A stretch of 64,000 nt of DNA from the NCBI RefSeq assembly GCF_051903065.1, contig NZ_CP178438.1. One strand, given 5' to 3'. The notes beneath the pieces are model-generated. The model worked only from the letters and a program-made list of their open reading frames with translations. It was not told the DNA's origin and ran no database searches. Of the stretch, positions 2,247 to 7,945 are shown in pieces. Numbering within the stretch: the first letter of the stretch is position 1; each line of letters starts with the position of its first letter. Origin of the DNA: Escherichia coli. GTDB taxonomy: Bacteria; Pseudomonadota; Gammaproteobacteria; Enterobacterales; Enterobacteriaceae. Both the position numbers and the translations under genes were made by a program.

Positions 2247-3167
2247 ATGCGTTTCCGCCAGTTATTACCGCTTTTTGGCGCGCTGTTTGCGTTGTATATC
2301 ATTTGGGGCTCAACCTATTTTGTCATTCGGATTGGCGTGGAAAGCTGGCCTCCGTTAATGATGGCGGGCGTTCGATTCCTGGCAGCCGGTATTTTATTGC
2401 TGGCATTTTTGCTACTGCGCGGACACAAACTCCCCCCGCTACGTCCGCTGCTCAATGCCGCGCTGATTGGCCTGTTATTGCTGGCTGTCGGTAATGGCAT
2501 GGTGACGGTTGCCGAACATCAAAATGTTCCTTCCGGCATCGCCGCCGTAGTGGTTGCAACCGTGCCCCTTTTTACCCTGTGCTTCAGCCGCCTGTTTGGC
2601 ATTAAAACGCGCAAACTGGAATGGGTGGGTATTGCCATTGGGCTTGCCGGAATCATCATGCTCAATAGCGGTGGAAATTTAAGCGGCAATCCGTGGGGCG
2701 CGATTCTGATTTTAATCGGCTCGATTAGCTGGGCGTTTGGCTCAGTTTATGGCTCGCGCATTACCTTACCTGTAGGGATGATGGCGGGTGCGATTGAGAT
2801 GCTGGCGGCAGGCGTGGTGTTAATGATCGCGTCGATGATTGCGGGTGAAAAACTGACGGCGCTCCCTTCCCTTTCAGGCTTCCTTGCGGTCGGCTATCTG
2901 GCGCTGTTTGGTTCGATTATCGCCATCAACGCTTATATGTATTTAATCCGTAATGTCAGTCCGGCTCTCGCCACCAGCTACGCTTACGTTAACCCGGTGG
3001 TCGCGGTCTTGCTGGGTACGGGACTGGGCGGAGAGACGTTGTCGAAGATTGAATGGCTGGCGCTCGGCGTAATTGTCTTCGCGGTGGTACTGGTCACGTT
3101 GGGAAAATATCTCTTTCCGGCAAAACCCGTAGTTGCGCCAGTTATTCAGGACGCATCAAGCGAGTAA
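2247..3167 (+). CDS. yedA: EamA/DMT-family transporter YedA
   Basis: 306-aa polytopic membrane protein with duplicated EamA-like halves; synteny. Confidence 0.8.
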   Translation: MRFRQLLPLFGALFALYIIWGSTYFVIRIGVESWPPLMMAGVRFLAAGILLLAFLLLRGHKLPPLRPLLNAALIGLLLLAVGNGMVTVAEHQNVPSGIAAVVVATVPLFTLCFSRLFGIKTRKLEWVGIAIGLAGIIMLNSGGNLSGNPWGAILILIGSISWAFGSVYGSRITLPVGMMAGAIEMLAAGVVLMIASMIAGEKLTALPSLSGFLAVGYLALFGSIIAINAYMYLIRNVSPALATSYAYVNPVVAVLLGTGLGGETLSKIEWLALGVIVFAVVLVTLGKYLFPAKPVVAPVIQDASSE

Positions 3168-3626
3168 ATGTATCCCCTGCGTGTCGATCTGCGCGCTGGC
3201 ACCTTCGCCGCAGATCCACTCTTCCAGACGCTCGGTAAGCGCTTCATCCGTCAGCTTCTCGCGCCCACGTAACGCGCACTCCCAGACAATCAATACGCGC
3301 CAGCCGAGTTCCTGCAAGCGACTGATATCGCGGCGATCGCGCTCAACATTTTTACCTATCTTCTCCAGCCAGAACTCGGTTCGAGTCGCAGGCACTTTAA
3401 ACAGATAGCAGTGATGATGGTGCCAGAAGCAGCCGTGGGTAAATATCACGCAACAATATTCATCAACGACAAAATCCGGGCGTCCGGGCAGACTGGCGTC
3501 CTGAACGCGAAACGCCAGGCCCTGCCCGGTTAACAGACTGGCGAGGCGCTTCTCTATCGCCGTATTACGCGTGGCAATCGCGCGCATATTTTTGCTGCGA
3601 GTGGCCTTATCGTGAACGTCGGCCAT
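3156..3626 (-). CDS. vsr: Very-short-patch repair endonuclease Vsr
   Basis: 156 aa beginning [22 protein letters not shown]; start ATG at 3624-3626 lies inside the dcm 3' end (20-bp overlap). The track's 210-aa ORF is an upstream in-frame extension. Confidence 0.9.
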
Positions 3627-5025
3627 GTTGTGCCTCTTGCTGACGCAACGCCACCGCCTGTTTGATTTTTGGCTCAAGCAGTTTTGCCACCGCGGCAAAG
3701 ACCGGCACGACCACCGAGTTACCGAGCTGGCGATAGGCCTGAGTGTCCGAAACCGGAATGCGGAATTTCGCTTCTCCCGGCGCTTCAAAACCCATTAAGC
3801 GCGCACATTCCCGAGGCGTTAACCGACGTGGACGATGTTGCTGATTCAGCGGATCGTCAAAGTCTTTCTCACCCGTGGCCATATCCCAGCCGCGATCGAT
3901 TAAAATTTCCGCGCCATCTTTGTAATAACGCGCAGACAGCGTACGCGTGACGCTTTGCGGATTGTTCGGATAAACCATTCCATAACCGAAGCCGTTACCG
4001 CGCGCCTGATGTTTTTTCGCATAACGATAGAGGTACTTCCACAGCACCGGCGTCAGGATATATTTCGCCTCGACCATCGGGTCCAGCAGCTGCGCCAGCG
4101 TCACTCGCTGTGCAGGGAAACATTCGCTGATATCACGCAGAGTAAAATCGGCTTTCAGATTAAGATCGCGACGAAAACCCACCAGCACGATGCGTTCACG
4201 GTGCTGCGGCAGGAAATGTTTACCATCGATGATTTTCGGATCGTCCGGCCCGTTATCTTCTGCATCAGCCACGTCATAGCCCAGTTCGTCCAGCGTCTGC
4301 ATGATGATGCGGAACGTTTTTCCTTTATCGTGACTTTTCAGGTTTTTGACGTTTTCGAGCACAAACATCGCCGGACGACGCGCGTCGATAATACGCACCA
4401 CATCAAAGAACAGCGTGCCCTGGGTATCGCAGGCAAAACCGTGCGCCCGCCCGAGCGAGTTCTTTTTCGATACGCCAGCCAGCGAAAATGGCTGACAAGG
4501 GAAACCGGCCAGTAAAACATCGTGTTCAGGAATGTGTTGACGAATATGTTCCGCCGCCGCCTCATCACTCACGCCTTCTTTATGGCTGAGGGTGATGTCG
4601 CGGATATCTTCATTAAAATGATGCGTCGCCGGGTCGCAATAATGATTGGCTTTATAAGTGCGTACCGCATGTTTGTTCCATTCGCTGGTAAACACGCACT
4701 GTCCGCCAATCGATTCAAAACCGCGACGGATGCCGCCAATTCCGGCAAATAGATCGATAAAGCGAAACGCATAATGCGGATGATGTGCCGGTGGTTTGGG
4801 TAACAACGTTTGCAGATGGGCGAACTCTTTCTCACTTAAACGGTGCCATGCCGAGTCATTCGCCAGCGCACGTTTTAAAATTGCCGCGCTCCAGTGATTC
4901 TCACCCACACCATTAAGCTGCGCCACCAGCGTTTTAACATCATAAATTTGCAGCAGTTTCTCCAGCATTGCCTGTGCGGCATTCCCGGTGCTGTATGAAT
5001 CGGTTACTGATATATTTTCCTGCAT
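3607..5025 (-). CDS. dcm: DNA-cytosine methyltransferase Dcm (CCWGG)
   Basis: 472 aa with C5-MTase motifs DLFAGIGG (motif I) and GFPCQPFS (motif IV catalytic Cys). Confidence 0.92.
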
Positions 5026-5091
5026 AGATTTAACCGGCCATCTGAGATGGTCGACAGGTTAACATAATTACAGCCATTTAGGGCCACGCGC

Positions 5092-5787
5092 TCAGCCCGC
5101 GGGTGAAAACGCATCTATCACCTTGTGATCGACACCTTCATTCTCCCCCGCCAGTTCGGCACTGAGCTTCGCCATAAACTCGACTAAAAATTGCGCGTTG
5201 TGCTGCGCCAGCTGCTTGCCTCTTGCGGTTTGCATGGTTTGCGGTAGCTTCAGCAACTTAGTCTGGAAATGATCCAGCGCGTAGCGTTTATCATCAAGCG
5301 GGCGATGCTGTGCGAACGGATCTTCACCATCAAACAGCGCCATGCCCAATGCCCCTGAAACGGCAAACACGCGCGCCAGGCCAATCGCCCCCAGGGCTTC
5401 CAGCCGATCCGCATCCTGGACGATTTTAGCTTCCGTTGTTAAGGGGGCGATTTGCGCGCTGAAACTGTGAGCGGCAATGGCATGACAAACGGCCTCGATT
5501 TTCTCCGCCGGAAATTGCTCGAACTCTTCACGGAGCAGGCGACGCGTCTCTTCTGCCGCCAGGATTGAAGAACGCTGCCGTTGCGGATGATTTTTCGCCA
5601 GACTCACAATATCGTGGAAATAACAGGCGGTTAAAATCACCAGCATATCGACGTCATCATCTGCCGCCAGCTTCTGTGCCGTAGCCCAGACGCGGCGAAA
5701 ATGACACACGTCATGGGCCGCGTCCTGGTGCTGATGATGGTTTTTCAACCAGTTTTCGAACTGTGCCTGCCAGTGTTGTAAGTCCAT
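5092..5787 (-). CDS. yedJ: HD-domain phosphohydrolase YedJ
   Basis: 231-aa ORF; synteny downstream of dcm. Confidence 0.75.
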
Positions 5788-5826
5788 ACGCGCTCCGTTG
5801 CCAAAGAGTCGCCACCTTAGCAGTTT

Positions 5827-6210
5827 TTATTCATAGCGTCTGCTACGTGCGGGACGAGGTCGGGTGTACCAGGCAATGCTGCCTAACAATGCCCCGACCA
5901 GAGCCATAAATAAAAATCCGACCAGTGCCCCTAACCACTTTCCCGCGGTAGAGCCTAAATCGCTTTCAAATCCCGACACGGGGGCATCGGGGATCCGGCT
6001 CATCACCCAGATGTAACGCGCCATTGCCCAGACGAAATAGCCACACCATGTATAGAAAGCCCACAAAGCCAGTTTGCCGCCAGGGCTGCGAGAGAGTCTC
6101 TCTTCCATCTTTGTCGAACCGTATTCCATTTTGAGATAACCCGGAAAATTCAGACTTAGTACTATTATGTGATAAAAGTCACATTTTTCCACATTGAATG
6201 AGCCAGTCAA
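5827..6210 (-). CDS. yedR: Small inner-membrane protein YedR
   Basis: 127-aa ORF with two hydrophobic helices; exact start uncertain. Confidence 0.6.
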   Translation of the reverse strand: MTGSFNVEKCDFYHIIVLSLNFPGYLKMEYGSTKMEERLSRSPGGKLALWAFYTWCGYFVWAMARYIWVMSRIPDAPVSGFESDLGSTAGKWLGALVGFLFMALVGALLGSIAWYTRPRPARSRRYE

Positions 6211-6757: not shown

Positions 6758-7945
6758 ATGAAAAGAAAAGTTCTGGCAATGCTGGTCCCGGCGTTATTAG
6801 TTGCTGGCGCAGCAAATGCGGCTGAAATTTATAATAAAGATGGCAATAAACTGGATTTGTACGGAAAAGTAGCGGGCCTGCACTACTTCTCTGATGATGC
6901 TGGCAGCGATGGCGACATGTCATATGCCCGTATCGGTTTCAAAGGTGAAACTCAGATCGCTGACCAATTCACTGGTTATGGTCAGTGGGAATTTAACATT
7001 GGCGCAAACGGTCCTGAAAGCGACAAGGGTAATACCGCAACGCGTCTGGCATTTGCAGGTTTCGGCTTTGGTCAGAATGGTACTTTCGACTATGGTCGTA
7101 ACTACGGTGTCGTATATGACGTAGAAGCATGGACCGATATGCTGCCAGAATTTGGTGGCGATACCTATGCTGGCGCTGACAACTTCATGAACGGTCGTGC
7201 TAATGGTGTTGCAACCTACCGTAACAATGGCTTCTTTGGTCAGGTCGATGGCCTGAACTTTGCTCTGCAATATCAGGGTAATAATGAAGATGATGGATTA
7301 TTCGGTCAGGAAGGTTCTGGTAACGGTAATGGCCGTAAGTTAGCTAAAGAGAACGGCGACGGCTTCGGTATGTCCACTTCCTATGACTTCGACTTCGGTT
7401 TAAGTCTGGGTGCTGCATATTCTAACTCTGACCGTACCGACAATCAGGTTCACAAAGGTACTCATAACACTCGTTATGGAGATCGCTTCGATGCAACTGC
7501 TGGCGGTGAAACAGCAGAAGCATGGACCGTTGGTGCTAAATACGACGCTAATAACGTTTACTTAGCAGCTATGTATGCTGAAACCCGTAACATGACTGGT
7601 TACGGTGATGCTGATGCCATCGCTAACAAAACCCAAAACTTTGAAGTTGTTGCTCAGTATCAGTTCGACTTTGGTCTGCGCCCGTCCATCGCTTACCTGC
7701 AATCTAAAGGTAAGGATTTAGGCGGTGTAAATAGTGATAACTTCGACAGCCAGGGTAATCATCACTACACCAACAAAGATCTGGTTAAATATGTTGATAT
7801 TGGTATGACCTACTACTTCAACAAAAACATGTCCACCTATGTTGATTACAAAATCAACCTGCTGGACAACGACGACGACTTCTACAAAGAAAACGGCATC
7901 GCTACCGATGATATCGTTGCTGTGGGCTTAGTCTACCAGTTCTAA
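6758..7945 (+). CDS. yedS: Outer-membrane general porin (OmpC/OmpF family), intact YedS-type
   Basis: Signal peptide [21 protein letters not shown], porin N-terminus [16 protein letters not shown] and C-terminal ...VGLVYQF; RBS AAGGGA 8 nt upstream of ATG 6758. The track's ORF starts at an upstream ATG (6728). Confidence 0.8.

Follow-up and report, generated by a model that had tools for sequence, protein, structure and literature searches.

Where vsr starts within the 3′ end of dcm in Escherichia coli, and how the two genes are arranged across Enterobacteriaceae

A methylase that creates a mutational hotspot and is physically coupled to its own repair nuclease has been a textbook case since the early 1990s. 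The genes are dcm and vsr, and the question raised by the present locus is at which codon vsr begins and how its expression is related to that of dcm. We examine it in a 64,000-nt stretch of the Escherichia coli contig NZ_CP178438.1 (assembly GCF_051903065.1), called the window in what follows. The original prediction for this DNA held that the ORF track over-extends vsr to 210 aa, and that the gene is a 156-aa frame starting at 3626, inside the 3′ end of dcm and in a different frame, with a 20-bp overlap. The mechanical ORF list indeed gives vsr as 3156..3788, 210 aa from a TTG start, and the overlap can be read off the sequence with exact coordinates. The features concerned are as follows.

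2247..3167, plus strand: yedA, convergent with vsr.
3156..3626, minus strand: vsr CDS, 156 aa, 471 nt (ATG 3626..3624, TGA 3158..3156), for the very-short-patch T:G mismatch endonuclease.
3607..3626, minus strand: dcm/vsr overlap, 20 nt, ATGGCCGACGTTCACGATAA, with vsr in the +1 frame.
3633..3638, minus strand: vsr Shine-Dalgarno (SD) element AAGAGG, within the dcm codons Gln-Glu-Ala and 6 nt before the ATG.
3627..3788, minus strand: spurious 54-codon 5′ extension of the 210-aa ORF, outside vsr, where the dcm 3′ end is read in its +1 frame.
3607..5025, minus strand: dcm CDS, 472 aa, 1419 nt (ATG 5025..5023, TAA 3609..3607), for the CCWGG DNA cytosine-5 methyltransferase.

Since (5025-3626) mod 3 is 1, vsr is in the +1 frame of dcm, and the A of its start codon is the second base of the dcm His codon CAT. 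On the dcm side the overlap takes in the last two nucleotides of that codon, the codons Gly-Arg-Arg-Ser-Arg and the stop; on the vsr side it takes in codons 1–6 and two nucleotides of codon 7. The vsr ATG at 3626 is 17 nt ahead of the dcm stop codon, the overlap being 20 nt with the stop counted. The only in-frame starts in the 5′ extension are the TTG codons at 3788, 3698 and 3677. We regard it as nearly certain that the window holds the E. coli dcm-vsr operon junction, with vsr read from ATG 3626 in the +1 frame by SD-directed initiation on a bicistronic mRNA. The junction is the textbook E. coli arrangement, already known, and nothing about it is new here.

Both proteins are readily recognized. 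Dcm matches the NCBIfam model NF007772 (‘DNA cytosine methylase’) at 949.3 bits against a cut-off of 710, residues 1–469 aligning with positions 1–471 of the 472 in the model, and it contains the Pfam domains PF00145 (259.6 bits) and, at the N-terminus, PF18284 (72.1 bits). GFPCQPFS and LENVKNL can be read in its translation; we take these to be the Pro-Cys motif IV and the Glu-Asn-Val motif VI of C5-methyltransferases. Given its 98% nucleotide identity to K-12 dcm, the gene probably encodes an enzyme that methylates the second C of CCWGG.

For Vsr, the whole 210-aa ORF was used as the query, so that a match could extend upstream of 3626. The TIGR00632 vsr model matches at 178.2 bits (cut-off 97.85) over ORF residues 55–172 and model positions 1–119, its match beginning at ORF residue 55, which is Met1 of the 156-aa Vsr; Pfam PF03852 matches at 128.1 bits (cut-off 27) over ORF residues 56–128. 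Alignment to the characterized Vsr agrees: PDB chain 1CW0_A (155 aa, ADVHDK…) corresponds to ORF residues 56–210 (E = 5.6e-104, 153/155 identical), which is the 156-aa frame minus its Met. The solved E. coli structures 1CW0, 1VSR and 1ODG share 99% identity with the protein, and no Vsr structure or family model reaches upstream of ORF residue 55. The literature gives the catalytic residues of Vsr as Asp51, His69 and Asp97, together with Thr63, His64 and Gln42, and the DNA-intercalating residues as Phe67 and Trp68 (PMC4081097, PMC2677866). Counted from the Met at 3626, Gln42, Asp51, Thr63, His64, Phe67, Trp68, His69 and Asp97 all fall at their published positions, and those numbers match a start at 3626 only. 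With 99% identity to the characterized enzyme, this Vsr would be expected to nick 5′ of the T in T:G mismatches within CTWGG/CCWGG.

The junction was then compared across species. We retrieved 80 loci, one level being the species, from across Enterobacteriaceae, each with a gene for a close relative of Vsr, and analysed every junction; with the window these make 81 loci. The vsr start codon is ATG at 74 loci and GTG at 7, and the synteny yedJ-dcm-vsr-yedA is found at 55 of the 81. An overlap of vsr with a dcm-like gene upstream is present at 57 loci; it measures 20 nt at 49 of them, the window among these, 17 nt at 4, 14 nt at 2 and 35 nt at 2. All 57 overlap lengths equal 2 mod 3, so that the frame relation of the two genes is constant; kept at every overlapping locus together with the ATG or GTG start, this relation is more than chance.

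The 49 loci with a 20-nt overlap allow the two frames to be compared over the same bases. In the vsr frame, mean consensus identity is 0.60 for the 54 codons that precede the ATG and 0.94 for the 21 codons that begin with it, with residues 3–5 and 7–17 invariant. In the dcm frame it is 0.86 upstream of the vsr ATG and drops to 0.68 within the overlap, where the Vsr frame is more constrained than the Dcm tail (D3, V4 and H5 are invariant, against the Dcm mean of 0.68). From these identities we infer that the ATG at 3626 is the exact point at which constraint changes over from dcm to the vsr frame. Conserved Vsr residues upstream of 3626, which the original prediction had named as the observation that would count against it, are absent among the 49 species.

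A start farther upstream, at the in-frame TTG 3788, 3698 or 3677, would yield a product of 210, 180 or 173 aa. In the window no stop interrupts this frame over the 54 codons ahead of 3626, and TTG 3698 has a GGUGG element with an SD energy of -5.8 kcal/mol, equal to that of ATG 3626. The structures and family models, however, begin only at ORF residue 55 or 56, and the extension is unconserved (the 0.60 above), the constraint over the same bases being that of the dcm frame (0.86). Stops interrupt the vsr frame upstream of the ATG in 22 of the 49 loci, and in two Salmonella enterica subspecies TAG is the codon directly before the vsr ATG. RefSeq and K-12 annotation both give 156 aa, the only length that the published numbering fits; for a 100%-identical genome, RefSeq PGAP calls a 471-nt vsr with the same 20-nt overlap with dcm. 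The upstream TTG starts are essentially refuted by conservation, stops, models and annotation, and we allow them next to no probability.

The other candidate is the in-frame ATG at 3587 (Met14), 13 codons downstream, which would leave vsr without a true overlap with dcm. Truncated Vsr does fold and crystallize, since 1VSR and 1ODG are without about 20 N-terminal residues. This ATG has no upstream SD, though (+1.1 kcal/mol), and Vsr residues 3–5 and 7–13 are invariant in the 49 species even though only codons 1–6 overlap dcm; this shows the N-terminal codons to be translated and under selection. Moreover, Vsr without residues 1–14 has diminished endonuclease and repair activity and has lost its stimulation by MutL (PMC2715241). 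On these three grounds, absent SD, invariant N-terminal residues and the defect of the truncated protein, ATG 3587 was rejected as the vsr start, for which it is very improbable.

Finally, a +1 shift by some ribosomes within the overlap might join Dcm and Vsr in a single fusion protein, given that the vsr frame lies at +1 to dcm and stays open through the junction in the window. Inspection of CAUGGCCGACGUUCACGAUAA revealed no slippery or RF2-type shift motif, and the conserved ATG or GTG with an SD at the junction indicates initiation and not shifting. The vsr start is, furthermore, unchanged in loci without dcm: Vsr has the homologous Met as its first residue also when dcm is missing or set apart. 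No such fusion is reported in the literature consulted on dcm and vsr. With nothing in its support, a fusion product seems to us hardly credible.

A 156-aa vsr from 3626 is thus where structures, family models, RefSeq and K-12 annotation and cross-species conservation agree, as the original prediction had it. Nothing contrary to the proposed identity and start site was seen, although the PDB chains are of recombinant protein and so do not alone prove the native N-terminus. As a matter of quality control, the mechanical 210-aa ORF call is wrong and the 156-aa annotation right.

Initiation at 3626 has a plausible signal. The vsr SD:anti-SD duplex, at -5.8 kcal/mol, ranks in the best 6.2% of all positions from 3200 to 5000, against -0.9 kcal/mol for TTG 3788 and the unfavourable value of ATG 3587 given above. 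In the SD alignment, column 51 is an invariant G and column 52 an A conserved to at least 90%; the GAG core of the SD is the dcm Glu codon, which is 96% conserved.

The mechanism that we propose for the locus would run as follows. Dcm would methylate the inner cytosine of CCWGG, deamination of the resulting 5-methylcytosine would produce a T:G mismatch, and Vsr would nick 5′ of the T, a short repair patch restoring the C. Translation of vsr would take place off the dcm-vsr bicistronic mRNA by way of the AAGAGG SD inside the final codons of dcm. With no gap between the genes, production of Vsr would be tied to dcm transcription and, according to the literature, to dcm translation as well, so that a cell making the mutagenic methyl mark would also make the repair enzyme.

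Efficient Vsr synthesis is said, after the work of Dar & Bhagwat, to require translation of the upstream dcm sequence. That dcm partially overlaps vsr has been described (PMC4444293), and PMC12907096 places the two genes in a single co-transcribed operon. Vsr activity is lost as well in dcm-6, an allele with a nonsense mutation in codon 45 (PMC4444293, citing Dar & Bhagwat 1993). To the extent of these sources, the ‘classic coupling’ of methylase and repair nuclease in the original prediction is borne out. The identities, coordinates, start codon, frame relation and SD, and the evolutionary conservation of the arrangement, are established by the present analysis; co-transcription and the dependence of Vsr on upstream dcm translation are taken from the literature, with which the sequence (no intergenic space, internal SD) is consistent.

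Several forms of coupling may be considered. Termination-reinitiation is possible, ribosomes re-engaging after the stop 17 nt past the AUG, and so is plain SD-driven initiation on the shared mRNA; a further possible way is that ribosomes translating dcm merely keep the vsr site accessible. Alternatively, Rho-dependent polarity and not translational coupling could account for the missing Vsr activity of dcm-6. Conserved mRNA structure that masks the vsr ribosome-binding site was rejected as the basis of coupling. For a 130-nt segment at the junction, folding of the single E. coli sequence gives no gain in stability over shuffles (z = -0.53), and RNAalifold over 49 species predicts no pairing over the vsr SD or start. 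When the E. coli hairpin is followed across the 49-species alignment, 64.5% of cells are paired against 64.0% in shuffles, and slid controls equal its covariation score. A model of structure unmasking is unsupported because no conserved structure occludes the site.

Species in which the two genes are parted are informative about dcm and vsr alike. Cedecea and Buttiauxella sp. B2 have gaps of 12 and 35 nt between dcm and vsr and no overlap. In Cedecea and Buttiauxella, Dcm ends about 12 residues sooner (…KKR), and vsr then follows a short gap or an inserted gene; this suggests that the E. coli Dcm tail may largely be a read-through of the vsr initiation region. Several Buttiauxella species have the inserted gene. 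In the locus of Buttiauxella agrestis (L051) it is an opposite-strand ORF of 172 aa at 1685-2203, with a hydrophobic, signal-peptide-like N-terminus; Dcm there ends …KLAAKKR, and Vsr begins from the homologous Met behind its own SD, GGAGGGAG. Similar gaps between dcm and vsr occur in loci L054, L060 and L067.

In 17 of the 80 species loci no complete dcm stands beside the intact vsr. Twelve of these have the order yedJ-vsr-yedA, with vsr 11–19 nt past the yedJ stop and a strong SD; yedJ-vsr without dcm is found in Kosakonia, Phytobacter, Enterobacter sp. kpr-6 and others. The vsr ATG is at about position 2501 in each of the dcm-less loci L019, L033, L037, L043, L049, L057, L069, L070, L073, L074, L077 and L081. 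Escherichia sp. MOD1-EC7003 (L002) and Klebsiella indica (L025) have remnants of dcm only, an indication that dcm was lost and not gained.

These loci also bear on whether vsr might be expressed independently of dcm, from an internal promoter or by autonomous SD initiation or both, the overlap then being compact packing only. The SD is reasonably strong and is hidden by no conserved structure; in Buttiauxella the opposite-strand gene parts vsr from dcm, and the vsr of Kosakonia and Phytobacter stands without dcm, which would mean that vsr can be expressed with no dcm ahead of it. Against this stand the loss of Vsr activity through the dcm-6 nonsense mutation and the reported co-transcription of the two genes. 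A consensus scan for sigma-70-like promoters found none in 2900-5900, a weak argument in that the dcm promoter escapes the scan as well. At loci that lack dcm, the 11–19 nt between the yedJ stop and vsr leave no room for a promoter of its own, and the 20-nt geometry is kept in 49 of the 57 overlapping loci. Independent expression is on balance unlikely, and SD-directed initiation on the dcm-vsr mRNA is the reading that we retain.

Relaxed selection on vsr where dcm is missing was tried as an expectation and rejected, for no sign of decay was seen. The ratio of Vsr to YedA identity is 0.97 without dcm against 0.95 with it (p = 0.08). Vsr proteins without an adjacent dcm keep the catalytic, Zn-site and intercalating residues, save for T63A and F67Y in two loci each.

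The comparisons invite a broader proposal, which we put forward tentatively and think rather less likely to be true than false: that the last dozen or so dcm codons would be mainly the vsr initiation region and N-terminal coding sequence, and that dcm has been lost repeatedly while vsr was kept. The tail would mainly serve vsr because the Dcm tail is variable, Vsr residues 3–5 are invariant and Dcm ends earlier in Cedecea and Buttiauxella. If the proposal is true, Vsr would have selective value apart from its neighbouring Dcm, through an unlinked methylase or a Dcm-independent role. The catalogue of Enterobacteriaceae that keep vsr without an adjacent dcm bears on functions of Vsr beyond the cleanup after Dcm.

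Other features of the neighbourhood deserve mention. The 3′ ends of vsr (minus strand) and yedA (plus strand) overlap by 12 bp at 3156-3167, as they also do in K-12 and in the RefSeq genome of 100% identity, and because they overlap there is no intergenic terminator between the two genes. At 3568-3594 (plus strand) is a terminator-like hairpin, with a 7-bp stem containing 5 GC pairs and a T-rich tail, antisense to vsr codons 14–20; it could terminate read-through transcripts from yedA, or could be a by-product of highly conserved coding sequence. Farther along, an intact 395-aa porin gene is found at 6758-7945 (plus strand; the mechanical ORF runs from 6728); in the identical genome NZ_AP045789 it bears the annotation ‘porin OmpC’. 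Flanked by drpB and hchA, it occupies the place of the yedS pseudogene of K-12.

Among complete E. coli genomes the locus is nearly universal. A 2-kb region of the window was matched by megablast in 5367 of 5426 genomes, and the junction is present, with annotated dcm plus vsr, in 5319 of the 5426; dcm, vsr, yedA and yedJ are annotated in 12 of 12 records among the matches listed. The 2-kb dcm-vsr query has no match in 59 of the 5426 genomes and the 100-nt junction none in 107; the genomes without a match presumably represent lineages without the locus. Identity of at least 99% over window positions 3100-5100 is found in only 6 of the 5367 genomes, and the window belongs to a somewhat less common E. 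coli lineage.

In E. coli K-12 MG1655, dcm (b1961) and vsr (b1960) at NC_000913.3 2030448..2032317 (vsr 2030448..2030918, dcm 2030899..2032317) are the same genes in the same order, with the same strand relation and of the same lengths, with the 20-nt overlap and the +1 frame. Seventy nucleotides around the junction are identical. The chromosomal context yedA / vsr-dcm-yedJ is present in the window, and the K-12 neighbours are the same (yedI, yedA, vsr, dcm, yedJ and drpB). Compared with K-12, the window has 8 nucleotide differences in vsr, which give D21N and R58C in Vsr, and 26 in dcm (98.2% identity), which give Q234K and F434L in Dcm. Cys58 is unique to the window among 77 Vsr sequences (the window and 76 orthologues), residue 58 being R in 43, Q in 28, H in 3, D in 2 and C in 1; Asn21 occurs in 3 of the 77. 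The structure 1CW0, of the full-length protein with DNA, starts at Ala2 of the protein read from 3626, and the window Vsr differs from it at N21 and C58. 1VSR and 1ODG are of N-terminally truncated Vsr, and the catalytic, intercalating and Zn-site residues are all present in the window Vsr.

The dcm-vsr pairs of Salmonella, Citrobacter, Enterobacter, Klebsiella, Lelliottia and other Enterobacteriaceae have the same arrangement with a conserved Vsr N-terminus, while the length of the overlap varies. More distant is VsrA/ScmA of Caulobacter, where an enzyme of the same family follows the same logic of repairing the damage due to a solitary cytosine methylase; its genes are on opposite sides of the chromosome (PMC12907096), whereas those of the window physically overlap.
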